A DNA stretch of 64,000 nt from Candidatus Aminicenantes bacterium (GCA_003648765.1 QMPV01000001.1:290-64289), one strand, 5' to 3'. Shown: positions 45,300-58,761, counted from the stretch's first letter. Program-made: numbers and translations. The notes: generated from the sequence alone by a model not told the origin.

Positions 45300-46625
45300 T
45301 TAGCTAGGTGGCTGGCTAACTTGGCGGGCAGGATGAAGCGCCTGTTTAATGGTGATTTCTTCTGTGGCAGCCAAATCAATAAGTCCTGCTTTCTCGGGTG
45401 GATTGATGACTTGGACAGAAGGCTTCTCTGGGGCAGAGGGATTGATCTTTTTTACTTGAGCTATCCACCCTGTGGATAATTTTACCTGACACCCCAAGGG
45501 CCAATAGCCCATAATTTGGATGAATCTCTCTAGCAGTTGAGGTTCGTATTTTTTCTCTTTGTCTTGGCGAAGAGATTTAATGATTTTATCAGGAGAGAAT
45601 TTTTTTTGAGTGAGTTGGAGATGGAAAAGCTCGTCATAAGCATCGCATAAAGCCACCACTTGAGAAATTTGATGAGGCCGGCGCAGATGATATTTCTTGT
45701 TAATGAGGGGTTCGAAGTTATAAGGAAGATGGCTTTCGAAGGCGATAACCAAAGGAATTTCACCTAATTCTTGAACGTAATTTAAGAGAGGGCGGGCCCC
45801 GTAGTAAGCGGACCGAAGTTCAGCCGGTAGAGAGGCAAGGAGGCTGGGTTTCTTTTCTGCCCGCTGTTTTTCTAAAAGAGTTCCCAAATCGTGGAAGAGA
45901 GCTCCCACGCCCAAATCGATTAAGACTTTTTTAGGCCAGCCAATTTGGGAGCCAACATACATGCTTAAGACAGCCACATTGAGCACATGCAAAGTCCGGG
46001 CAGGAGTTTTCTCTTGGTGTTTCGCTAGAGAGATTAAGTCAAGGTAACTCCCGGAAAAACTTTCTAAAAGAGTTAAAGCTGCGAACTGAAGGTCAACAAC
46101 TTCCAGTTCCTCTTTAATCATTATTTTTTCAATAATGGAGTTGACCAGCTGGAGGGCAGAAAAATATTGAGGAATAAATTTGGCTTTTTTTTCGATGAGA
46201 GAGAGGGCTGTTTCAGAGGCCGCTTGAAGTTTGCCGACACCAATGTGTTCTAAGCCGAGAAGCTTTAATTGGCGGGCGATATCCAAGCCGGTTTTTGTCT
46301 GGGGATCAAGCAGGAACTCAATGAATTTTTGGAGTTCTTCAAGTTGTAAGCCGAGAGAAAAGATGATTTTTTCAATCCCCCGCTCTTTTAAAAAATGGAC
46401 AAATGATTGAGCTTTTTCACTGAGCTCAAAGAAGATCTGGTCTTCTAGACAAAGTTCTTGTCCCACCACCCCCAAGATAATTTCGTTCTTTTCCTGAAGA
46501 TAACGAGTTAATGTTTCCCAAAGAGAATTAATAGATTCGGCGAATTGAGGGTGGCTGGGCGAGTAAATTTTGGCGGTTTGAATGGTGTTGATCAAAGCCA
46601 ATAAAAGTTGTTCTTTAGATTCCAT
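45300..46625 (-). CDS. HD-domain protein with a degenerate HD-GYP-like C-terminal domain and a novel N-terminal domain
   Basis: 441 aa. HVLNVAVLS...GALFHDLG...DAYDEL resembles the HD-GYP scaffold, but the HHExxDGxGYP stretch is replaced (ESHLPYNF). The N-terminal ~110 aa are paralogous to the N-terminus of the upstream 640-aa protein. Confidence 0.55.
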   Translation of the reverse strand: MESKEQLLLALINTIQTAKIYSPSHPQFAESINSLWETLTRYLQEKNEIILGVVGQELCLEDQIFFELSEKAQSFVHFLKERGIEKIIFSLGLQLEELQKFIEFLLDPQTKTGLDIARQLKLLGLEHIGVGKLQAASETALSLIEKKAKFIPQYFSALQLVNSIIEKIMIKEELEVVDLQFAALTLLESFSGSYLDLISLAKHQEKTPARTLHVLNVAVLSMYVGSQIGWPKKVLIDLGVGALFHDLGTLLEKQRAEKKPSLLASLPAELRSAYYGARPLLNYVQELGEIPLVIAFESHLPYNFEPLINKKYHLRRPHQISQVVALCDAYDELFHLQLTQKKFSPDKIIKSLRQDKEKKYEPQLLERFIQIMGYWPLGCQVKLSTGWIAQVKKINPSAPEKPSVQVINPPEKAGLIDLAATEEITIKQALHPARQVSQPPS

Positions 46626-48537
46626 GGGTCAACCTTTCCAGAGCCTGATGGGCTTCTTCTCGGAGTTTTTTATTCCAGAAAAATTTTCTTTGGCTGAGTT
46701 CCTGAAGATAGGGTTGGGCTTCAGGGACACCAATTTCAGTTATGATTTGAATATTAGCCCGGAGGAATCTATTTCTCAATCCGAAAGGAGAAGGAACGAG
46801 GAGTAATTCCTGGAGAATTTTTTCCCGAGATTGAGGATTTTGCACCAGGACTCGAATGGCTTCTTTGCGGAGAGCCAGATTTTTGTGTTTAATTAGAGGT
46901 TGAAGAAAAGAGTGCTCAATCAGGCTGAGTTTTTGGAAGGCTTGAATGATTTTTACCTGAAGTGAGGGGCTTACTAAGGGGAAAATGTGTTTGAGAATGG
47001 TCGCTATTTGGGGAGAATCAATGGTTTGTAAATTGGTAATAATATTTTCCACTAGAACTTCATCATGAGTGACCCTTTCCAGGTTTAGCAGAAAGTAAAA
47101 AAGATGATCGCTGAAGAAATGAAGAAAAGCCTGGAGGAGATAAGGTGTGACAATCTTTTTATCAAAGATGATTTCCAAATAAACGTTTTCGTTGTAGTAA
47201 GAAGCATCAAAAAGATTAATTAATTCTTGGAAATAAAGGTTCTTTTCCCCTTCAAGAATCAATTGTTCGACTTGTTTAGTAATTATTTTTTTGATTTGAC
47301 TGATGGCCTCGCCTACCAGATGGGGAGGGAGGTTTTGGAGGGAAGAGTAGAGATACTTGATGAATTCGAAATCTTTTTCTTCCAGAGCCACGCTGACTTC
47401 TTCTCCTAACAATTGAGTAATTTTCTGACGCTCAGCCGTTTTTTCTTCCCAGTGGAAAAGATTGAGAAGTATGAAACGGAAATTTCTCTTGAGTTCTTTG
47501 GAGTCAAAAGGTAATGTTTCCACTTCGGGGCGAGTACTGAGCTCTTCCAGAACTGATTTGTAAGTTTCAGCAAGGGGATAATCAACTGACGATAGAATTT
47601 TTTTGATTTTATTTTGGAGTTTACCCTGAGCCAGGAGACTGGCTTGTTGGCTTAAAATATCTTTCATTAAAGCTGATATTTTTTCGTTTTTTTCTTCAGG
47701 AATTATTCTGGTAATGAGTTGCCAGCGGAGAGAATCAAAATCATCCCGATGGATCAATTCCTCGCTTAGAAAGAGAGCAAGATCTTCTTCACTTAGCTGA
47801 GTCAGAATCTTTTTGTATTTTTCCAAAGGGAAATCAGCGCCAAGATTAGGCCGATGGAGAAGTGAGCGGAGAAATTCCTTGACCCGGAGCGGATAAGCGG
47901 GCGCATTGACTTCCTGAAGCCGGGCAAAGAATTTTTCTAGGGAAAGATTTATTTCTTCATCATTAATCAATTTTTCCAAGTCAAGTGAGGAAATAAATTT
48001 AACAAAGCTTTCTTCAACCTCACGAAAGAGTTGGTTGTCTTCTTTCTTTATTGATTCATCCAGCAAATAACCCCAGACATCCTTAATTTCTTCCCCTTCT
48101 CCTTTGAGAAGTTGAGAATAATCGAGTTCTTCTATTTGAATATGGGGGAAGGCACCTGATGCCAAGAGAGGCATTAATCCTTCCTGGCGATAGTAATCTC
48201 GAAGAGGTAAACTGAGGGTGGTGATTAATTGAGAGAGTTCCTTGGGCTCTATTCCTGGAATAAAGGTGAGGCTTTTTATTTTTCTTAAATGGAGAAAACA
48301 AGCTAACTCTTGATAGAGGGTATCTCCCTCCAGGCTGAAGTCATTGACACGAAGAGAAGTAGGGCTGATTTTAATAATTAGAGGAGAAAAAAATCGACTT
48401 ACCTCTTGAAGACGTTGAGTAAGATTTTGAATTGAATGTTGAAAGCCAGGGTGATGGTGAGGATACATGAGAGCGTTCTTAAGAGAAATTTTAAAGGCTT
48501 GGAAAAAAAGTTTGAGAGTTTCAATTTGAGTTTTCAA
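46615..48537 (-). CDS. hypothetical protein: N-terminal domain shared with the downstream HD protein, C-terminal HEAT/PBS-lyase-like repeats
   Basis: 640 aa. Its N-terminal MYPHHHPGFQHSIQNLTQRLQE...FLHLRKIKSLTF aligns with IYSPSHPQFAESINSLWETLTRYLQE...FLKERGIEKIIF of the next gene. The C-terminus has repeated LRKEAIRVL-like helical repeats. It overlaps the downstream gene by 11 nt. Confidence 0.5.
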   Translation of the reverse strand: MKTQIETLKLFFQAFKISLKNALMYPHHHPGFQHSIQNLTQRLQEVSRFFSPLIIKISPTSLRVNDFSLEGDTLYQELACFLHLRKIKSLTFIPGIEPKELSQLITTLSLPLRDYYRQEGLMPLLASGAFPHIQIEELDYSQLLKGEGEEIKDVWGYLLDESIKKEDNQLFREVEESFVKFISSLDLEKLINDEEINLSLEKFFARLQEVNAPAYPLRVKEFLRSLLHRPNLGADFPLEKYKKILTQLSEEDLALFLSEELIHRDDFDSLRWQLITRIIPEEKNEKISALMKDILSQQASLLAQGKLQNKIKKILSSVDYPLAETYKSVLEELSTRPEVETLPFDSKELKRNFRFILLNLFHWEEKTAERQKITQLLGEEVSVALEEKDFEFIKYLYSSLQNLPPHLVGEAISQIKKIITKQVEQLILEGEKNLYFQELINLFDASYYNENVYLEIIFDKKIVTPYLLQAFLHFFSDHLFYFLLNLERVTHDEVLVENIITNLQTIDSPQIATILKHIFPLVSPSLQVKIIQAFQKLSLIEHSFLQPLIKHKNLALRKEAIRVLVQNPQSREKILQELLLVPSPFGLRNRFLRANIQIITEIGVPEAQPYLQELSQRKFFWNKKLREEAHQALERLTHGI

Positions 48538-48821
48538 AGTCCACCTACTAGAGGTAATTGAATCAAAGTGAGCAAATTATGCCTCTCCTCTTTCCCTAGC
48601 AAAGAATATTAATCCTGACTTTCTCTGTCAAGTAGAATGGGCCCAATTGTCTAATTAAAACAGTGCTTTTGGTCAAGACAAAAGGGTTGGCCAGGGATTA
48701 AGAAAGAGAAGGGGCCGGAAGCCATGGATTGAGATAAAAAGAATTAGTCTGTTGGCTGTGGACTATTAAAAAGAGGATGTGATTAATTAAAGCTCTTTTT
48801 CCTTGCTGGCAGCGGCCCGCC

Positions 48822-48852
48822 AAAAAAAAGAGACTGGACTGGGAATGAGTCC
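48822..48852 (-). terminator. candidate intrinsic terminator for the PAS-GGDEF gene
   Basis: On the minus strand a GGACT-cattccc-AGTCC hairpin is followed by agtctcTTTTTTTT, about 30 nt after the stop. Confidence 0.4.
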
Positions 48853-48883
48853 TTCTGAATTGGAATTTAGAAAAAAGTTGGAC

Positions 48884-49870
48884 TTATTTCTCTTCTTCTT
48901 TTCGGGGTAATTCCAGAGTAAAGGCGACCCGATTACGGCCGAGCCATTTAGCGTGGTTCATTAATTTCTGGGCCCGATTTATTAAACTCTCCACAGTGTC
49001 CTTTTTTTGAGCCAGAGTAGCTCCAATGGAGACGGTTGTGCTGACAATTTCATTTTCAATCATAATGCTAGCTTGAGTAATTAATAATCTGAGTTTATTG
49101 GCAATCATGTCCAGTTTTGGTTCAGTGATATTAAGAATAACTACAATAAATTCATCTTCCTTCCAGCGACCCACAATATCAAAAAAGCGAATATTATTTT
49201 GAAGAGTTTGGCCCACGCTCCGCAGAACTTTATCCCCTCCCTCTGGGCCAAAAGCTTCGTTGATATTAACCATTTTGTCAATGTCTAAATAAAGAATGCC
49301 TGAGGTGAGTTTGAATTTTCTCAGTTCCTCCAGACGAGAGAGGAGTTGAATTTCTAGATAACGCTGATTGCCTACCTCGGTTAAGGGATCCAGAAGGGCC
49401 ATGCGACGAAGTTCTTCCGTTTTCTGGGGCATAAGCACTTTGGGCGACATATCGGAAAAAATTTCAGCTGCCCCGATAATATGGCCTTTTTCATCGCTAA
49501 GGGGCAGTAGATGAATTTCCACCGGTAAGAGATAGCCTTCTTTATGATGGATGTAAACTTCAAGATGACGAGGCTGGCCGTCTTCCATAACTTTAATGGC
49601 GGGACAAAGGTCATCACAGAGTTTAGTGCCGTAGGCATTCACATGAACCAAGACCTGGTCCCAACATTTTTTACCGATAACCTCTTCTGGGGAATGGCCG
49701 GCGATTCTTTCTGCGCCTTTATTCCAAAAGAAAATTTCTCTTTCTCGATTGACAGCGCAAATACCATCCTGAGTGTTGTCTAGAATGATTTTGAGGATAG
49801 ATGGTGACAGATACTCGATAAAATTGTTATTTGTCAACTTAACCAATCTTACCCCCCACTTATTTTTCAA
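48884..49870 (-). CDS. PAS domain + degenerate GGDEF domain protein (GG(D/E)EF replaced by KEDEF)
   Basis: 328 aa with an N-terminal PAS domain (NTQDGICAVNREREIFFWNKGAERIAGHS) and a C-terminal GGDEF fold (DPLTEV.NQRYL... I-site region ...). The signature reads DIVGRWKEDEFIVV. Confidence 0.8.
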   Translation of the reverse strand: MKNKWGVRLVKLTNNNFIEYLSPSILKIILDNTQDGICAVNREREIFFWNKGAERIAGHSPEEVIGKKCWDQVLVHVNAYGTKLCDDLCPAIKVMEDGQPRHLEVYIHHKEGYLLPVEIHLLPLSDEKGHIIGAAEIFSDMSPKVLMPQKTEELRRMALLDPLTEVGNQRYLEIQLLSRLEELRKFKLTSGILYLDIDKMVNINEAFGPEGGDKVLRSVGQTLQNNIRFFDIVGRWKEDEFIVVILNITEPKLDMIANKLRLLITQASIMIENEIVSTTVSIGATLAQKKDTVESLINRAQKLMNHAKWLGRNRVAFTLELPRKEEEK

Positions 49871-50055
49871 ACTTCTCAGTCATAATTGGTCTTATTAGTT
49901 GTATAACCTATTTTGCTTTAGTTTGTCAAAATATTTTGTAACAAGATTAGGAGAACCACTCTCAAGAGCCAGCCGGGGTTTTTTTAAAATAGTGGGGTCG
50001 AGAGAAATAGTTTGTTTTTGACAAGGGAAGGTAAATCGTCAAAAATATTCTTGAA

Positions 50056-51138
50056 GTGAGCATGATTAAGATTTTGCATACGGCTGATTTACATCTGCAG
50101 AAGAAGGGAGATGAGCGTTGGGCCACTTTAGTAAAAATTTTGCAATTAGCTCGGGCCGAGAAAGTAGCTTTTTTAATTATTGCCGGAGATCTTTTTGATG
50201 CCAATAGTCAGGCTGAAAATTTGAAGAGGGAATTAAGACCTCTTTTTTCTCAAAATGAATTTGAAATTTTGATTCTGCCCGGTAATCATGATGCCCGGTG
50301 GTGGCAAACATCTCCATTTCTTGGGAATAATGTCAAGATTTTTACTGAATTGACTCAGCCTTTTCTTTACTCTGAAGGAAAAATTGCTTTTTATGGACTG
50401 CCTTTTGAATTTATGAGTCGGGATGAATTACTCCAAAAGTGGCAACTACTCAAACCAGCTTTGGAGACTAAAAGAACTAACTTCCTGGTTTTCCATGGAG
50501 AATTACTTGATGCTTTTTATCTCCCTACTGATTTTGGGGACGAAGGTCGAGAGCGTTATTTACCCGTGAAACTCGTGGATTTTAGTGAGTTGGCTTTTGA
50601 TTATATTTTAGCTGGACATTTCCACACTCGTTTTGAAGTTTTCTCGATGAAAAATGGTGGATATTTTATTTATCCCGGCTCGCCTATTTCTATTACCCGC
50701 AAAGAATTAGGACCTCGGCGGGTAAATTTATTTAAAATCGGACAGCCCCCAAGTGAAGTAATTTTGGCCACCCCTTTCTATCAGGAAATTGAAGTTTTTC
50801 TTGATCCTACCCAAAAATCTTCTCCTCTGGAGGTAGTTGAGGCCGCTTTAAGTAACTTACCCCAAGAAGCTCGGGTTATTCTCCGGGTCAAAGGATTTTT
50901 TGACGGCCGACGCCATAACCTCACCGAACAATCCTTCCAGGAAAAGCTCGAGCAACTCACTGCCAAATACAACGTAGAGGATATTCAACCCGAATATTAT
51001 GATTTCCAGCGGGTAGCTCAAGAGAGGCTTTTTCAGGAAGTTATGGATAGGTTAAATCAGCGGAGTGACCTCGAAGAAGCAGAACGAACCAAAATGAGAG
51101 AAATAGTCATTCGGGCTATGGTCGAGGCTTTAGCATGA
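50056..51138 (+). CDS. SbcD/Mre11-family metallophosphoesterase (YhaO-like nuclease subunit)
   Basis: 360 aa with calcineurin-like motifs (ILHTADLHL, GDLFD, LPGNHD, GHFH). The start is GTG or the ATG two codons in. Confidence 0.85.
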   Translation: MSMIKILHTADLHLQKKGDERWATLVKILQLARAEKVAFLIIAGDLFDANSQAENLKRELRPLFSQNEFEILILPGNHDARWWQTSPFLGNNVKIFTELTQPFLYSEGKIAFYGLPFEFMSRDELLQKWQLLKPALETKRTNFLVFHGELLDAFYLPTDFGDEGRERYLPVKLVDFSELAFDYILAGHFHTRFEVFSMKNGGYFIYPGSPISITRKELGPRRVNLFKIGQPPSEVILATPFYQEIEVFLDPTQKSSPLEVVEAALSNLPQEARVILRVKGFFDGRRHNLTEQSFQEKLEQLTAKYNVEDIQPEYYDFQRVAQERLFQEVMDRLNQRSDLEEAERTKMREIVIRAMVEALA

Positions 51139-53459
51139 AAATCAAAGAGATAAACTTGCCAAGATACGGCCCTTTGAGAGAACGCTATTTTAAGAATTTG
51201 GGGAGTTTTAATCTTTTTTGGGGAGAGAACGAGGAGGGCAAAACGCTCCTCATCGAAGCTCTGCTGAAAATGCTTTTTGGCAAAAAAGCCCGGGGATTGC
51301 CGGGCATTGATCGCGTTGAGGAATTTCCTGAAGGTTTTGTGATTCTGGAACTAGCTGGCGGTGAAGAAATTAAATTACCCCAAGATGGAGATTTAAATAG
51401 CCTCTTTGATTTACCTGTGTCTGAAGGAGAAAATATTTTTATTATTCGTAACAGCGAACTGGCTCTTTCGCGGCAGAAAGAAGGAGAGTTTCGCTTTTAT
51501 ACTGAATTTACAGATCGTCTTTTAGGTTTGCAGACCCAAAAAATCAAAAAATTAAAGAGCGTCCTCCAAAAAATGGGTCGGTTGACCCGCCCTGAATCAG
51601 ACGCCCCTCTCTCGGGAAGTAAAGAAGTGGAGTTTATGGCTCGAAGGGTGAAGGTGGCTGAAGAATTAATTAAGGAGATGGAAGAGTTGCAAGAGCAAAT
51701 TGAAGAAAAAGGTTGGGCTGATTTAGAAAGAGCCTTAGCCTTTGACCAAGAAAAATATCGGCTAATTAATAATCAACTGGATCTTCTGGAAAAAGCCCGG
51801 CTTCGCGATTTATACCAACAGGGGAAGCAAGCCTTAAGAGAGCTCCGAGAAAGCTGGCAAGTTTGGCCTGAATTAGCCAAGTTTCAACCTGATTTAAAAG
51901 TGAGCTGGCTCAGAGCCCAAGATGGTCTTCAGATTCACCAGAAAGAATTAGACCGAGAATTACAAGCTCTTGAAAAAAAGAAACAAGCTCTTCAACAAAA
52001 GGAAGAAGAATGGCGGAAAAAACAAGAGGAGAAAGCTGCTCTGGAGGAAAAGAGACTTCAAGCCAGAGGACAACTGCAGGATTTAGTCCGCGAATACCAG
52101 GAGAGATTGGCCCACCAGAGCCAAGAGTCTTCCGGTCTTTCTTTTTGGCAAAAGTTTTTCTGGGGTAGTCTGGTTCTGGTTATTTTGCCGGCTTTAGCTT
52201 GGCTAATCCAGCCCCATTTTATTTTGGCGGTCGTGGCCGCTGGTGGCTTCTTGGGTTTTATTTTTTCTAGTGTGAAAATTATTTCCCTCCGTCGCCAGCA
52301 AGGTCAGCTTGAATCTCTTTGGGTTAGATTGGCTAACCGAGCAGCAGCTTTAGGGTTGAGAGCCACTTCTTTTCAGGAACTTTTAGCCCAATTGGCTCGC
52401 CTAGAAGAAGCAGGCAGTCGGCTGGAAAAAGAAATAGGTGGGTTAGAGGAGGCCAGGAGGCAATTGAGAGTGGATCTGGCTGAAATCGAAGCCAAGGTGG
52501 AGGAACGCCGCCAGACGATGGCCAGTGATACGGAAACTCTCAACCAGCTTCGTCAATCCACTGGAGTCACCTCTCTTAAAGAATTAGAAGAGAAAATTGC
52601 TCAGGCGGCTCATCATAAAAGTGTCTTAGATCGGACTCAGGCTTTTCTTGAACAAAATTTTCAGAGGATAAGTGAGGACTTAGCGGCTAACCTGGAGTAT
52701 TGGCAACAAAAATTGTCTGCTCTGGTCTCTTTTCAAGAAGTACCAGCTGAAGTAGTTTACTCGGAAGAAGAGAAAATCAGGTCGGAGAGTGAGCTTCAAA
52801 TTTTAAAAGAGAAAATAGAGGAGACTAGCCAGAGTTTAGCTGCCCTGCGCCAACGCCTAGCTCATCTAGAAGATAAGATAAATCGAGAAGTCCAATTGCC
52901 CGAGTATTATCGGTGTGGAACCATCGAAGAGATGGTGGTGGTCAAAGAAAAGCTGGAAGAATTTATTAACCAGATTTTAGAAGAAAAATACTTGGTTAGC
53001 CGAGTGCTGGAAATCTTGGAAGAAATAGAAGCTGAAGAAAGAGATAAAATTACTTTTCTTTTTGGCGATGAAAGTCAGGTTTCGGAATATTTTAGAAAAA
53101 TCACGGGCAACCGCTATCATTCTGTAGCTTACGACGGGGAAGAGATGAGTTTGGTGGTCCAGTCAGAGGAAGGTAAGCCATTAAAAGCTACTCAACTTTC
53201 GGCTGGTACTTACGACCAGCTTTATTTTGCGGTTCGCTTGGCTTTGGGAGAGAAAAGATTTCCCCAAGAGAAAGCGTTTTTCATTTTAGATGACCCCTTG
53301 GTCAAAGCTGACCCTCGGCGGCTGCTTGCTCAATTAGAACTCCTCCAGGAGATTGTGGAGATGGGCTGGCAAATCTTTTATTTTTCGGCTAAAGGCGAGA
53401 TCAAGGAGGCCCTGCAAAATGACATTCAGGCTGGTCGGGTGACTTATATATCTTTTTAA
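51135..53459 (+). CDS. SbcC/Rad50-like AAA ATPase with long coiled coil and two internal transmembrane helices (YhaN-like)
   Basis: 774 aa with an N-terminal P-loop GENEEGKT, long heptad-rich Glu/Lys/Leu/Gln segments, a hydrophobic pair (FWQKFFWGSLVLVILPALAWLIQPHFILAVVAAGGFLGFIFSSV) and a C-terminal signature/Walker B (QLSAGTYDQLYFAVRLAL...FFILDDP). It overlaps the SbcD-like stop by 4 nt. Confidence 0.75.
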   Translation: MKIKEINLPRYGPLRERYFKNLGSFNLFWGENEEGKTLLIEALLKMLFGKKARGLPGIDRVEEFPEGFVILELAGGEEIKLPQDGDLNSLFDLPVSEGENIFIIRNSELALSRQKEGEFRFYTEFTDRLLGLQTQKIKKLKSVLQKMGRLTRPESDAPLSGSKEVEFMARRVKVAEELIKEMEELQEQIEEKGWADLERALAFDQEKYRLINNQLDLLEKARLRDLYQQGKQALRELRESWQVWPELAKFQPDLKVSWLRAQDGLQIHQKELDRELQALEKKKQALQQKEEEWRKKQEEKAALEEKRLQARGQLQDLVREYQERLAHQSQESSGLSFWQKFFWGSLVLVILPALAWLIQPHFILAVVAAGGFLGFIFSSVKIISLRRQQGQLESLWVRLANRAAALGLRATSFQELLAQLARLEEAGSRLEKEIGGLEEARRQLRVDLAEIEAKVEERRQTMASDTETLNQLRQSTGVTSLKELEEKIAQAAHHKSVLDRTQAFLEQNFQRISEDLAANLEYWQQKLSALVSFQEVPAEVVYSEEEKIRSESELQILKEKIEETSQSLAALRQRLAHLEDKINREVQLPEYYRCGTIEEMVVVKEKLEEFINQILEEKYLVSRVLEILEEIEAEERDKITFLFGDESQVSEYFRKITGNRYHSVAYDGEEMSLVVQSEEGKPLKATQLSAGTYDQLYFAVRLALGEKRFPQEKAFFILDDPLVKADPRRLLAQLELLQEIVEMGWQIFYFSAKGEIKEALQNDIQAGRVTYISF

Positions 53460-53542: not shown

Positions 53543-55015
53543 ATGAAAAGGAGAAAACTGGGTTTTATTAAAGTAGTGCTTTTGGTCAGCCTTGTGCTGA
53601 ATTTTATTCAGTGTGAAACTCAAGAAAGTCTAACGAAAAAAAGAATCAAGAGTGTTGAGCAGGGTTTGCTAAGAGGAGTTTATTTGAAAGGTACCCGGCC
53701 AGAGAAACTATCTCTCTTTGATCGACTGCAGTTTTACCGTGTTCCGGGCGTGAGTCTGGCTGTCATGGATGGGTTTCAGATAGAGTGGGCCCGGGGGTAT
53801 GGCACTAAGAACATTGCCCAAGCCGAACCGGTTGATGAAAACACCCTTTTTCAAGCTGGAGCTCTGAGCCAGGTTTTGGCCACCTTGGCGACCCTTTCCC
53901 TAGTGGACGAAGGCTTGATTGAATTAGATCAGCCTGTAAATACTTATCTTTGTCGCTGGAAGATGCCGATCTATTCGGTTAATCGTCAACGTCGGCTCAC
54001 TATCAGAGATATCCTGACTCATAGTGCAGGCTTTTACGAAATTGAGTTTCAAGGATATACCCCAGGGGATTCCCTGCCTACTTTGGTCGACATTCTTGAG
54101 GGCAAAAGTCCGGCCCGTAATCCTAAACTTTATCCTGTTTATCCACCTGGGACGCAGCGGGTTTATTCAGAAGCGGGTTTTGTGCTTCTCCAGCTTCTCC
54201 TAGAGGATGTCACAGGTCAGGATTTTGCTCAATTAGTTAAAGAAAGGGTAATTCAGCCTCTTCATTTGGCCAACACAACTTTCGAGTGTCCTTTGCCACC
54301 GGCTCTGCAGGCGCGGGCAGCTCAAGGTTATGACCGGCAAGGGCAACCTTTACCTGGAGGAGCTCGCATCTTTCCTCAGCAGGCAGCGGCTGGCTTATGG
54401 ACAACGCCCACGGATCTACTCCACCTCTCTTTGGCTTTGATCAAAATGGCGCGGGGAGAAGAAAGGGACGTTATTTCTCCTCTGTTAATCAGAGAGATGT
54501 TGACCCCTCGTTTAGGCTTGCAGGCGATGGCTTTTTTAGTAGAGGGTAGTGGAGATGACCTTCGGTTCTATCTGGAAGGTTATAACCCTGGTTTTAGTGC
54601 CTTTCTGGTGGTTTATCCTTCTCGAGGTCAAGGTGTGGCTATTATGGCCAATAGTGATAACGGCCTTTATTTGAGTGAGGAGATATTGCGGGCGGTGGCG
54701 GCTAATTATAATTGGCCTCATTTTCAGCCCGAGGAAAAAACTCCTTATCGGCTGCCAGTAGAAATTTATCAGGAGTATGTAGGTCGCTACGAAGTCAATC
54801 CGCAATATCATCTAGACGTTCGCTATGAGGATTATTATTTGATCATTCATCCTACTGGACAGGTGCCCACCCGTTTCTATGCCGAAAGTAAATCAACCTT
54901 TTTTGCCGTTGATCCCTACATTCAAATTCAATTTCTCAGAGATCGGCAAGGTCGGGTGACTGGCTTGGTCCTTCGTCAGAAAAGGACTCGGGTTGAAGCC
55001 AAGAAGGTCAGTTAA
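53543..55015 (+). CDS. secreted serine hydrolase of the beta-lactamase/transpeptidase-like superfamily (class C-like; nucleophile motif atypical)
   Basis: 490 aa with a signal peptide. The overall pattern (ENTLFQAGALSQ..., THSAGF, YSEAGFVLL) fits the AmpC/PBP4-like family, but the usual SxxK lysine is not obvious. Confidence 0.65.
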   Translation: MKRRKLGFIKVVLLVSLVLNFIQCETQESLTKKRIKSVEQGLLRGVYLKGTRPEKLSLFDRLQFYRVPGVSLAVMDGFQIEWARGYGTKNIAQAEPVDENTLFQAGALSQVLATLATLSLVDEGLIELDQPVNTYLCRWKMPIYSVNRQRRLTIRDILTHSAGFYEIEFQGYTPGDSLPTLVDILEGKSPARNPKLYPVYPPGTQRVYSEAGFVLLQLLLEDVTGQDFAQLVKERVIQPLHLANTTFECPLPPALQARAAQGYDRQGQPLPGGARIFPQQAAAGLWTTPTDLLHLSLALIKMARGEERDVISPLLIREMLTPRLGLQAMAFLVEGSGDDLRFYLEGYNPGFSAFLVVYPSRGQGVAIMANSDNGLYLSEEILRAVAANYNWPHFQPEEKTPYRLPVEIYQEYVGRYEVNPQYHLDVRYEDYYLIIHPTGQVPTRFYAESKSTFFAVDPYIQIQFLRDRQGRVTGLVLRQKRTRVEAKKVS

Positions 55016-57933: not shown

Positions 57934-58761
57934 TTAGACCTCAGTTTGAGGAAGCTCTCTTTCTTCAAGTATTTTTTCTAGGGAGATTCCCTTTTTGGCC
58001 AAATATTCGGAGATCAACTTGGGTCCGAGGCTCTCCAACTTCGGTTGCAGGGAGGCCACGACCTTCTCGGGAGTGACATCTTCTTGGATATTGAAGAAAT
58101 TTCTTTTCCAATGGATAAAATAACCGGAGAGACAGATAGGTTGCACCCGGCGATAAAAATCCCGCCGAAAGATATCTAAGATGGACTTTTTCTGTCGGTC
58201 GAGGCTGTTAAAGTCAATCTTGGCGCCCAGCTTGAGCAGCACATCTCTTCTTTCCTGCCGAGTGTTGAGATCATAGAGAATAGGTAGGTATTGGACTTTA
58301 TACCGGCGGGCGAAATTTTTGATTATTTCCAAAAATTCTGGAAAATTATCGGCGGTTACCAAGAGTTTAGCCCCATTAGGAGCCTGTTCCCAGTTGGCCC
58401 CGTCAGTGAAAAAAGGGATATTGTGTTCCAAGGCATAAACAATGCTTCCTAAAGCCATACTGGCCCGACAGGGGATACACCAGGCGGTTTCGTTCCCGTA
58501 TTTTTTCTTAGTTTCTCGATAAGTTTTGACTCCTAATTCTTTAAAAAAATTTTTGATGTCCATAATTTTGTGGACAAACTTTTCTGGGCCATGGATTTTT
58601 TGGAGAAGTTCCACATTGATCCGATTAGCTTTCAGAGCCAGATGTAGATAACCCTTATTGAAAGTCAGCAGGTGAATTTTATCATATCGGGAGGCCAAAT
58701 AATGAGCGGCGTAGAGAGAGTCGATTCCACCGGAGAATTGAAGAATAACTTCCTTTTTCAT
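57934..58761 (-). CDS. PP-loop (adenine nucleotide alpha-hydrolase) family ATP pyrophosphatase, QueC/ExsB-like
   Basis: 275 aa with the N-terminal PP-loop LQFSGGIDSL (SGGxDS) and Cys-rich CIPCR. The exact subfamily is uncertain. Confidence 0.6.
   Translation of the reverse strand: MKKEVILQFSGGIDSLYAAHYLASRYDKIHLLTFNKGYLHLALKANRINVELLQKIHGPEKFVHKIMDIKNFFKELGVKTYRETKKKYGNETAWCIPCRASMALGSIVYALEHNIPFFTDGANWEQAPNGAKLLVTADNFPEFLEIIKNFARRYKVQYLPILYDLNTRQERRDVLLKLGAKIDFNSLDRQKKSILDIFRRDFYRRVQPICLSGYFIHWKRNFFNIQEDVTPEKVVASLQPKLESLGPKLISEYLAKKGISLEKILEERELPQTEV

Follow-up and report, generated by a model that had tools for sequence, protein, structure and literature searches.

What kind of machine is encoded by a gene pair whose first product looks like the nuclease Mre11/SbcD and whose second looks like the ATPase Rad50/SbcC, when the second protein carries a long hydrophobic segment at the very place of the zinc hook? 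The question is raised by two genes in a 64,000-nucleotide (nt) stretch of DNA from Candidatus Aminicenantes bacterium (GCA_003648765.1, QMPV01000001.1:290-64289), which is called the window below; positions are counted from its first letter. A first-pass annotation of the region 50056-53459, made from the sequence by itself, had described a metallophosphoesterase and a 774-residue P-loop coiled-coil ATPase overlapping by 4 nt, had pointed to the Bacillus YhaO/YhaN pair as a possible relative, and had considered DNA uptake, repair at the membrane, and defense as functions. We conclude, with a probability of about 70%, that the pair encodes a membrane-tethered Mre11/Rad50-type DNA nuclease complex of a short, divergent YhaO/YhaN clade. 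The central finding concerns the apex of the ATPase coiled coil, where computation showed a 45-residue hydrophobic helical hairpin in place of the zinc hook.

Both open reading frames (ORFs) were found on the plus strand with the overlap that the annotation had reported, which is exactly 4 nt long and reads ATGA. The nuclease ORF (50056-51138) encodes 360 residues when read from a GTG at 50056 and 358 residues from an ATG at 50062; the ATG is probably the start codon, since the homologs all begin with MKILHTADLHL and a 99%-identical database protein has 358 residues. The ATPase has a database twin of 100% identity, the NCBI entry 'hypothetical protein DRJ11_00220'. A Shine-Dalgarno-like GAGG motif precedes the ATPase ATG by 7 nt. 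One genome per GTDB species was scanned for relatives, and most counts of gene context refer to the best 80 of the 471 stretches obtained. All 77 loci that include DNA 5' of the ATPase gene have the nuclease gene as its immediate neighbor there, in the same orientation, and 61 of these 77 have the identical 4-nt overlap. Computation thus showed the pair to be coupled in translation and constant in its association.

The nuclease matched the Pfam family Metallophos (PF00149) with 65.6 bits and contains Mre11 motifs I-V in the form of D11-x-H13, GDLFD, GNHD, H147, and GHFH (numbered from the GTG at 50056), and the metal-binding residues of the motifs were invariant among 36 homologs from many phyla. 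Among the sequences in the PDB, SbcD and Mre11 matched it best. In the AlphaFold2 (AF2) model, which had a mean predicted local distance difference test score (pLDDT) of 89.6 and a predicted TM-score (pTM) of 0.82, the core is that of a phosphoesterase, the capping domain is rich in beta structure, and the C-terminus has two helices. When this model was compared with the PDB by Foldseek, the top 50 matches were Mre11/SbcD chains without exception, including full-length ones with the Rad50-binding C-terminus. Computation showed that the nuclease folds like Mre11/SbcD and that its di-metal site is intact.

The AF2 model of the ATPase (mean pLDDT 81.6) consists of two lobes joined by long helices. 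Its best Foldseek match in the PDB was Rad50 of the C. thermophilum MRN complex (7zr1_C, E 1.5e-10), followed by Smc5/6, condensin, MukB, and JetC, with Wadjet, Lamassu, and Gabija structures among the weaker matches. When a profile of 24 clade members was compared with the PDB, the only ATPases that matched were the C-lobes of Rad50 (E 1.4e-11), and the other matches were unrelated helical proteins at a weak E > 0.002. These computations show the ATPase to have a split Rad50-like ATP-binding cassette (ABC) head whose lobes are connected by an antiparallel coiled coil. The Mre11/Rad50-like nature that had been proposed for the pair is supported by fold and motifs.

The nucleotide-binding motifs of the head are present in a modified form. 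The Walker A motif, GENEEGKT, occupies residues 30-37 (nt 51222-51245), and its columns G30, N32, E33, G35, K36, and T37 are invariant in the clade. In the C-lobe, the signature LSAGTYDQLYFAVRL begins at residue 688, the Walker B motif is FFILDD (715-720) with Asp replacing the catalytic Glu, the D-loop Asp is D726, and the stretch GWQIFYFSAK (744-753) places Ala752 at the position of the Rad50 H-loop His. Both replacements were read from the residue-level alignment with P. furiosus Rad50, which pairs LSGGAYDQLY with LSGGERIALG, ILDDP with ILDEP, and YFSAK with LVSHD; Rad50 has the Walker B Glu (ILDE) and the H-loop His (VSH), whereas the ATPase studied here has ILDD and FSA. The same deviations recur in a sample of 175 relatives of at least 600 residues, as 171 have the Asp-Asp Walker B and 158 have Lys as the second residue (x-K) at the H-loop position, where His was found in none of the tallied motif variants. 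Asn100, which the hhalign alignment of the N-lobe pairs with the Gln of YhaN FRQLF, is the presumed equivalent of the Q-loop Gln; N106 had been considered for this position and was dropped in favor of N100 on the same alignment. The Asp-Asp Walker B, the H-loop Ala, and the presumed Q-loop Asn suggest that ATP turnover is slow or differently catalyzed, and one may speculate that the conserved Lys after the H-loop Ala could compensate for the altered residues.

Coiled-coil arms around the hydrophobic segment, as described by the first-pass annotation, were seen both as long AF2 helices and in a rough heptad score, which exceeded the 99th percentile of shuffled sequences at residues 160-193, 265-306, 437-478, and 539-634, that is, on both sides of the segment. 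The ascending arm has about 170 residues and the descending arm about 225, which makes the latter some 55-60 residues longer, with helix breaks near 510-545. Halfway along the arms, distant from the heads and the hairpin, the residues A221, R224, L505, and W523 vary little or not at all; together with the helix breaks, they could be signs of an elbow, joint, or docking site.

The hairpin between the arms has the sequence FFWGSLVLVILPALAWLI-QPH-FILAVVAAGGFLGFIFSSVKIISL and is composed of helix 1 (F341-I358), the turn Q359-P360-H361 (nt 52209-52217), and helix 2 (F362-L385). It is bordered by K340 on one side and R386-R387 on the other, has prolines at P352 and P360, and contains a single charged residue among its 45, while 31.5% of the residues of the whole ATPase are charged. 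The best 45-residue window of the protein reached a mean Kyte-Doolittle hydropathy of 1.86, compared with 0.73 ± 0.22 for shuffled sequences, a value that was attained by none of 5000 shuffles. By Hessa-type insertion sums, helix 2 scored -0.28 kcal/mol and helix 1 scored +1.78 kcal/mol; one of the two helices in a hairpin often has a marginal value like the latter. AF2 placed short helices at 337-355 and 363-375. The ATPase has only one Cys, and the CxxC zinc-hook motif is absent from the protein.

The transmembrane call was based on hydropathy, the Hessa-type insertion scale, charge distribution, and conservation across the family, for which the same 175 relatives were surveyed. All 175 contained a 40-residue window with a mean hydropathy of at least 1.22 (median 1.96), located at a relative position of 0.30-0.53 (median 0.43). 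This window had at most two charges in 168 of the 175, although about 34% of the residues of these proteins are charged, and in 171 of 172 relatives the two best insertion windows were no more than 35 residues apart. CxxC was absent from 173 of 175. The uncharged block measured 40-58 residues (median 45) and was composed mostly of L, A, F, I, S, V, and G. Its sequence was poorly conserved and its hydrophobicity was maintained. In 108 of 163 sequences, a Pro was found within 6 residues of the block center. The 12-residue flanks of the block contained on average 3.3 and 3.5 Lys + Arg residues (1.9 expected) and 1.5 and 1.1 Asp + Glu residues (2.2 expected). The hydropathy, the Lys/Arg-rich flanks, and the pattern of conservation are features expected of a helical hairpin in the membrane whose two ends face the cytoplasm, and not of a soluble hook. 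The earlier description of a mid-protein segment of about 45 residues with two transmembrane helices, situated between the arms where the zinc hook is expected, is upheld by the shuffles, the insertion windows, the flanks, and the lack of CxxC, and the survey extends it to every relative sampled.

The segment could also be a buried, soluble dimerization hook, which would make the pair a variant of cytoplasmic SbcCD. It does lie at the apex where Rad50 dimerizes, the AF2 confidence over it is modest, and helix 1 is not a strong membrane segment by itself; moreover, foci of SbcE (YhaN) fused to yellow fluorescent protein (YFP) were observed on the nucleoids of B. subtilis (PMC2811018). A soluble hook is, however, difficult to reconcile with blocks of 40-58 residues that have 0-2 charges in nearly all of these charge-rich proteins, that vary in sequence and keep their hydrophobicity, that are composed mostly of L, A, F, I, S, V, and G, and that are flanked by Lys/Arg-enriched and Asp/Glu-depleted stretches, as the positive-inside rule predicts. 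The unique central domain of B. subtilis SbcE, which has a conserved proline and a hydrophobic first half, was insoluble when expressed, and it was not called transmembrane (PMC2811018). The NCBIfam models for SbcC and SbcD also scored far below their cut-offs, as detailed below. Long low-charge blocks with positive flanks are not what a buried hook would show, and we regard this explanation as very unlikely.

The membrane hairpin leaves the question of which family the pair belongs to. The only Pfam family above its gathering score in the ATPase was AAA_27 (PF13514; 25.7 bits versus 22, residues 1-52), which was matched by 20 of 24 clade members and whose members are named 'YhaN AAA domain-containing protein' by the sources. 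When the clade profile was aligned with YhaN by hhalign, the C-lobe gave 99.9% (E 2.3e-34, 288 columns) and the N-lobe 98.4% (E 7.7e-15); the YhaN reference consisted of Paenibacillaceae homologs that carry this name or 'uncharacterized protein YhaN' in the sources and that served as stand-ins for the B. subtilis sequence. A word-indexed search returned 27 strong full-length relatives of 760-800 residues and then weak YhaN-named proteins of about 1100 residues, and an exhaustive profile search returned 733 cluster representatives at E ≤ 1e-30. Nearly all of the top 150 were full-length proteins of about 770-790 residues, and the clade as a whole spans 760-800 residues.

The pair shares several further traits with YhaN/YhaO. 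An SbcD-like nuclease gene lies directly 5' of the ATPase gene, as it also does in Cohnella and in B. subtilis (PMC2811018); the C-lobe has the LSxGxx(D/E)QLYLAxRL signature, an hhhhDD Walker B, and the D-loop Asp; two heptad arms surround a hydrophobic central domain with a conserved Pro, a double hydrophobic segment, and no CxxC; and the genes are chromosomal in both. The clade differs from YhaN in the size of the ATPase, which has 774 residues here, whereas the YhaN family is expected at about 960-1100 residues, SbcE has about 106 kDa (PMC2811018), and the YhaN homologs used have 1030-1150 residues, and in its arms, which are shorter than the heptad regions of about 300 residues in SbcE (PMC2811018). 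YhaN retains the H-loop His (TCH/SH) and the Gln of FRQLF, whereas the clade has Ala-Lys, and the ATPase studied here has Asn100, at these positions. The nuclease has about 355 residues here and about 427 in YhaO, no yhaM-like gene was seen downstream in the window or among the neighbors of related loci, and its hosts are not Bacilli but archaea and uncultivated lineages, most of them from sediments and the subsurface. The resemblance to the Bacillus pair that had been suggested reflects true homology: the pair is a divergent, short (about 775 residues) subfamily of the known, barely studied YhaO/YhaN (SbcF/SbcE) family and not a new kind of system.

An ordinary housekeeping SbcCD in which the hydrophobic stretch is incidental is favored by the automated annotation of homologs as 'exonuclease SbcC' or 'SbcD' and by weak NCBIfam matches to SbcD and Mre11. 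The traits shared with SbcCD and Mre11-Rad50 are the Mre11 fold with motifs I-V, the capping domain, and the C-terminal helices in the nuclease, the split ABC head with its antiparallel coiled coil, and the two-gene operon. The NCBIfam scores stayed below their cut-offs, though: the SbcD subfamily model scored 45.2 bits against a cut-off of 77.65, the equivalog models 22-41 against 450-750, and the Rad50 models about 29 bits or less (best 29.4 versus 1000) against cut-offs of 700-1087. The apex has a membrane hairpin here and a CxxC zinc hook in SbcCD and Mre11-Rad50, the hairpin is universal in the clade and not incidental, and the closest named profile family is YhaN. E. coli SbcC has about 1048 residues, and the arms of the clade are shorter. 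As the NCBIfam scores are too low, CxxC is lacking, and the profile of YhaN is closer, the pair is not placed with housekeeping SbcCD, and we rejected this explanation as having hardly any likelihood.

Relatives of the ATPase were detected in 471 species genomes, which represent archaea as well as more than 15 phyla of bacteria. The best 80 came from Bacillota, Desulfobacterota, Chloroflexota, Calditrichota, Aminicenantes, Aerophobetes, Planctomycetota, Spirochaetota, and several candidate phyla, and included five archaeal members (Thermoplasmatota, Methanobacteriota, Bathyarchaeia, and Methanoperedens); all 80 were from metagenome-assembled or uncultured genomes. Two archaeal ATPases, from Thermoplasmatota and Methanobacteriota metagenome-assembled genomes (MAGs; loci L014 and L018), were 72-74% identical to that of an Aerophobetes MAG (L015), compared with a family median of 38%, which points to recent inter-domain transfer or to contig mis-binning.

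The surroundings of the pair in the window are those of an ordinary chromosome, with genes for pyruvate:ferredoxin oxidoreductase, pyruvate formate-lyase, complex I subunits, hydantoinases, a tricorn-like protease, a PAS-GGDEF protein, a CLC channel, and an Rrf2 regulator. Within Aminicenantes, the locus is syntenic at 57% ATPase identity, and at 36% the downstream beta-lactamase-fold gene is still kept; outside Aminicenantes, the flanks vary. When all neighboring ORFs were clustered, no conserved third gene was found, the best real neighbor families occurring in 6 of 80 loci; clusters that had appeared to recur were discarded as antisense shadow ORFs inside the two genes. The beta-lactamase-fold gene was likewise rejected as a conserved third gene, since no genomes other than those of Aminicenantes and a small number of related MAGs retain it (5 of 128 neighbors). 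In one Bacillota-like locus, the pair lies beside uracil-DNA glycosylase and 3-methyladenine glycosylase genes. An HNH endonuclease gene of about 175-205 codons adjoins the pair in 5-6 of about 80-88 loci from different phyla, for example in L005 (9350-9970, minus strand) and L065 (4179-4703, plus strand); it was the most DNA-related recurrent neighbor and is too rare to be part of a module.

The defense option raised by the first-pass annotation could take the form of a system against phages or plasmids, in which a membrane-tethered nuclease would intercept and cut incoming foreign linear DNA. An ATPase resembling the structural maintenance of chromosomes (SMC) proteins together with a nuclease is a recurrent design of defense systems, and Lamassu LmuB, Wadjet JetC, Gabija GajA, and PARIS AriA share with the clade an ABC/SMC head with a coiled-coil insertion and a nuclease, JetC and LmuB being weak fold matches. 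Membrane placement would suit the sites of DNA entry, and the archaeal/Aerophobetes identity and the HNH neighbors could be taken in the same sense. The best PADLOC matches, HEC-02A and LmuB, nevertheless reached only about 25 bits over a P-loop region of about 45 residues (within residues 1-49), and no PADLOC defense-protein model was matched over its full length, as membership of Lamassu, Wadjet, Gabija, PARIS, or Dnd would demand. Scanning the 128 immediate neighbors of the 80 loci with Pfam and PADLOC yielded 127 different Pfam families, the commonest present in 6 loci, and one clear defense gene, a type I restriction enzyme (HIT and UvrD matches were generic). A tblastn search of 72,556 plasmids and 50,697 phage records identified no encoded relative. 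The extra subunits, defense islands, and plasmid or phage carriage of the SMC-like defense systems were not found for the clade, and we know of no Lamassu, Wadjet, Gabija, or PARIS system with a membrane hairpin at its apex. Together with the synteny among metabolic genes in Aminicenantes down to 36% identity, these results led us to reject both a defense-island context and carriage by mobile elements. The defense option received no backing from the neighborhoods, and we consider it improbable.

The pair could instead be an accessory of DNA uptake that processes transforming or conjugative DNA at the membrane for recombination, not chromosomal breaks. Membrane anchoring is the feature that such a model explains best. 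In B. subtilis, SbcE and SbcF were found at the cell poles of competent cells, and sbcE mutants showed a transformation defect that was aggravated by recN or sbcC deletion (PMC2811018). The defect was mild, however, and the mutants were sensitive to double-strand breaks, with a damage-sensitivity phenotype that was general (PMC2811018). No competence, pilus, or ComEC-type genes were conserved beside the pair in 88 loci, and competence is unknown in most host lineages, including the archaea. It is quite unlikely that uptake is what the pair serves.

A broader view would regard the clade of about 775 residues as a distinct, horizontally mobile membrane DNA-surveillance module of bacteria and archaea, in which a hairpin-held, possibly non-hydrolyzing Rad50-like clamp surveys phage, plasmid, or transforming DNA. 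We consider this proposal unlikely but worth stating, since, if true, it would amount to an unrecognized and widespread membrane-level DNA-surveillance nuclease.

For the membrane-tethered Mre11/Rad50-type complex that we favor, the following mechanism can be proposed. The hairpin would insert into the cytoplasmic membrane with both ends on the cytoplasmic side, and two hairpins would probably pack in the membrane and thereby take over the dimerizing function of the zinc hook. The C-terminal helices of the nuclease would bind the ATPase arm in the manner of Mre11. The ATPase heads and the nuclease dimer would hang up to about 20-25 nm below the membrane, because the shorter arms of about 170 residues would extend by about 0.15 nm per residue. 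Nucleotide-dependent engagement of the heads would then clamp DNA ends, hairpins, or blocked ends for the nuclease, as in SbcCD, and the ATPase would act as a nucleotide-gated clamp more than as a motor. By analogy, the role of the pair would most likely be membrane-tethered DNA-end processing, that is, the processing of breaks and ends near the membrane ahead of recombination, as part of chromosomal maintenance and not of mobile immunity. The phenotypes seen in B. subtilis favor this role, as does the stability of the chromosomal context.

Several observations weigh against this interpretation. As regards the hairpin, helix 1 alone is only marginally insertion-competent at +1.78 kcal/mol, the AF2 confidence over the region is modest (pLDDT 55-65), and a re-entrant (monotopic) hairpin fits the data as well as a fully spanning one. 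As regards the family, a search with the single sequence reached YhaN proteins only at E 4.5e-4, the similarity between the clade and YhaN is confined to the head lobes, and the arms fall short of those of YhaN by about a third. The protein appears to deviate at three canonical catalytic positions, so that ATP hydrolysis itself is not assured, and the near-identity across domains, whether it stems from horizontal mobility or from mis-binning, would be more typical of an accessory function than of core repair.

In the usual view, Rad50 and SbcC are soluble machines in which a zinc hook holds the arms together, and the clade swaps this hook for a membrane hairpin. In the literature that we searched, whose coverage was incomplete, we found no description of a membrane-anchored Rad50-like protein and no report in which the central domain of YhaN was called a membrane anchor; the single functional study that was found, on SbcE and SbcF of B. 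subtilis, characterizes the domain only by its hydrophobicity and insolubility (PMC2811018). UniProt presumably predicts transmembrane helices for YhaN. The hairpin architecture is striking, unexplained, and widespread, but it is common to YhaN proteins that have long been in the databases, and it does not indicate a specific new function. If the reason for membrane fixation were explained, models of break repair or DNA entry in bacteria and archaea would gain a spatial dimension. With its deviant ATP site, the clade lends itself to a natural test of how much hydrolysis such clamps require, and genes now labeled 'hypothetical', 'AAA family ATPase', or 'SbcC/SbcD' could be named consistently.

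The features of the pair and of a neighboring gene block are collected in Table 1. The promoter candidate lies 10-16 nt 5' of the nuclease start codon and would leave a very short leader; as the scan gave 8 sites with 5.1 ± 2.5 expected, it is a candidate only.

Table 1. Coordinates of the nuclease-ATPase pair, its parts, and the divergent gene block upstream (positions in the window; residues refer to the ATPase)
Feature	Position (nt)	Strand	Evidence or remark
Sigma-70-like promoter candidate, TTGACA-17 nt-AAAAAT, 10/12 matches	50018..50046	+	Consensus scan
Mre11/SbcD-like (YhaO/SbcF-like) metallophosphoesterase nuclease gene	50062..51138	+	ORF, Pfam Metallophos, motifs, AF2 model
Translational-coupling junction	51124..51138	+	GAGG 51124-51127, then ATGA start/stop overlap 51135-51138
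Rad50-like, YhaN/SbcE-family ABC ATPase gene, 774 residues	51135..53459	+	ORF, Pfam, AF2, profile comparison
N-terminal head lobe, residues 1-160	51135..51614	+	Pfam AAA_27, invariant columns, hhalign
Ascending coiled-coil arm, residues ~163-330	51621..52124	+	AF2 helices 163-192, 194-247, 252-304; heptad score
Apical membrane hairpin, residues 341-385	52155..52289	+	Hydropathy, shuffles, Hessa-type sums, AF2, conservation
Descending coiled-coil arm, residues ~416-642	52380..53060	+	AF2 helices 416-476, 481-509, 544-586, 597-642; heptad peaks
C-terminal head lobe, residues 643-774	53061..53456	+	Motifs, invariant columns, P. furiosus Rad50 alignment, hhalign
PAS-GGDEF diguanylate cyclase	48884-49870	-	
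640-residue protein, no Pfam match	46615-48537	-	
441-residue protein, sub-threshold HD-domain match only	45300-46625	-	11-nt overlap with the gene of the 640-residue protein

The beta-lactamase-fold gene (53543-55015, plus strand) begins 83 nt past the ATPase gene and encodes a 490-residue protein with a serine beta-lactamase/penicillin-binding protein fold (PF00144 and a weak DUF3471 match) and a signal-peptide-like N-terminus. No terminator-like site was found between the two genes. On the other side of the pair, the divergently transcribed three-gene block (45300-49870, minus strand) is also syntenic in L001, the relative at 57% identity, and may be a cyclic di-GMP signaling module with an uncharacterized partner. 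A 275-residue protein encoded at 57934-58761 (minus strand) gave only sub-threshold matches to the PP-loop ATPases QueC and ThiI; it is kept in synteny in L001, where no Pfam match is recorded for it. The GC skew was positive in every 2-kilobase bin of the window (0.05-0.21) regardless of gene strand, so that the cumulative skew climbs steadily from 1 to 64000, and the AT skew rises to about 0.22 at 22-28 kilobases, over the minus-strand genes for complex I membrane subunits.

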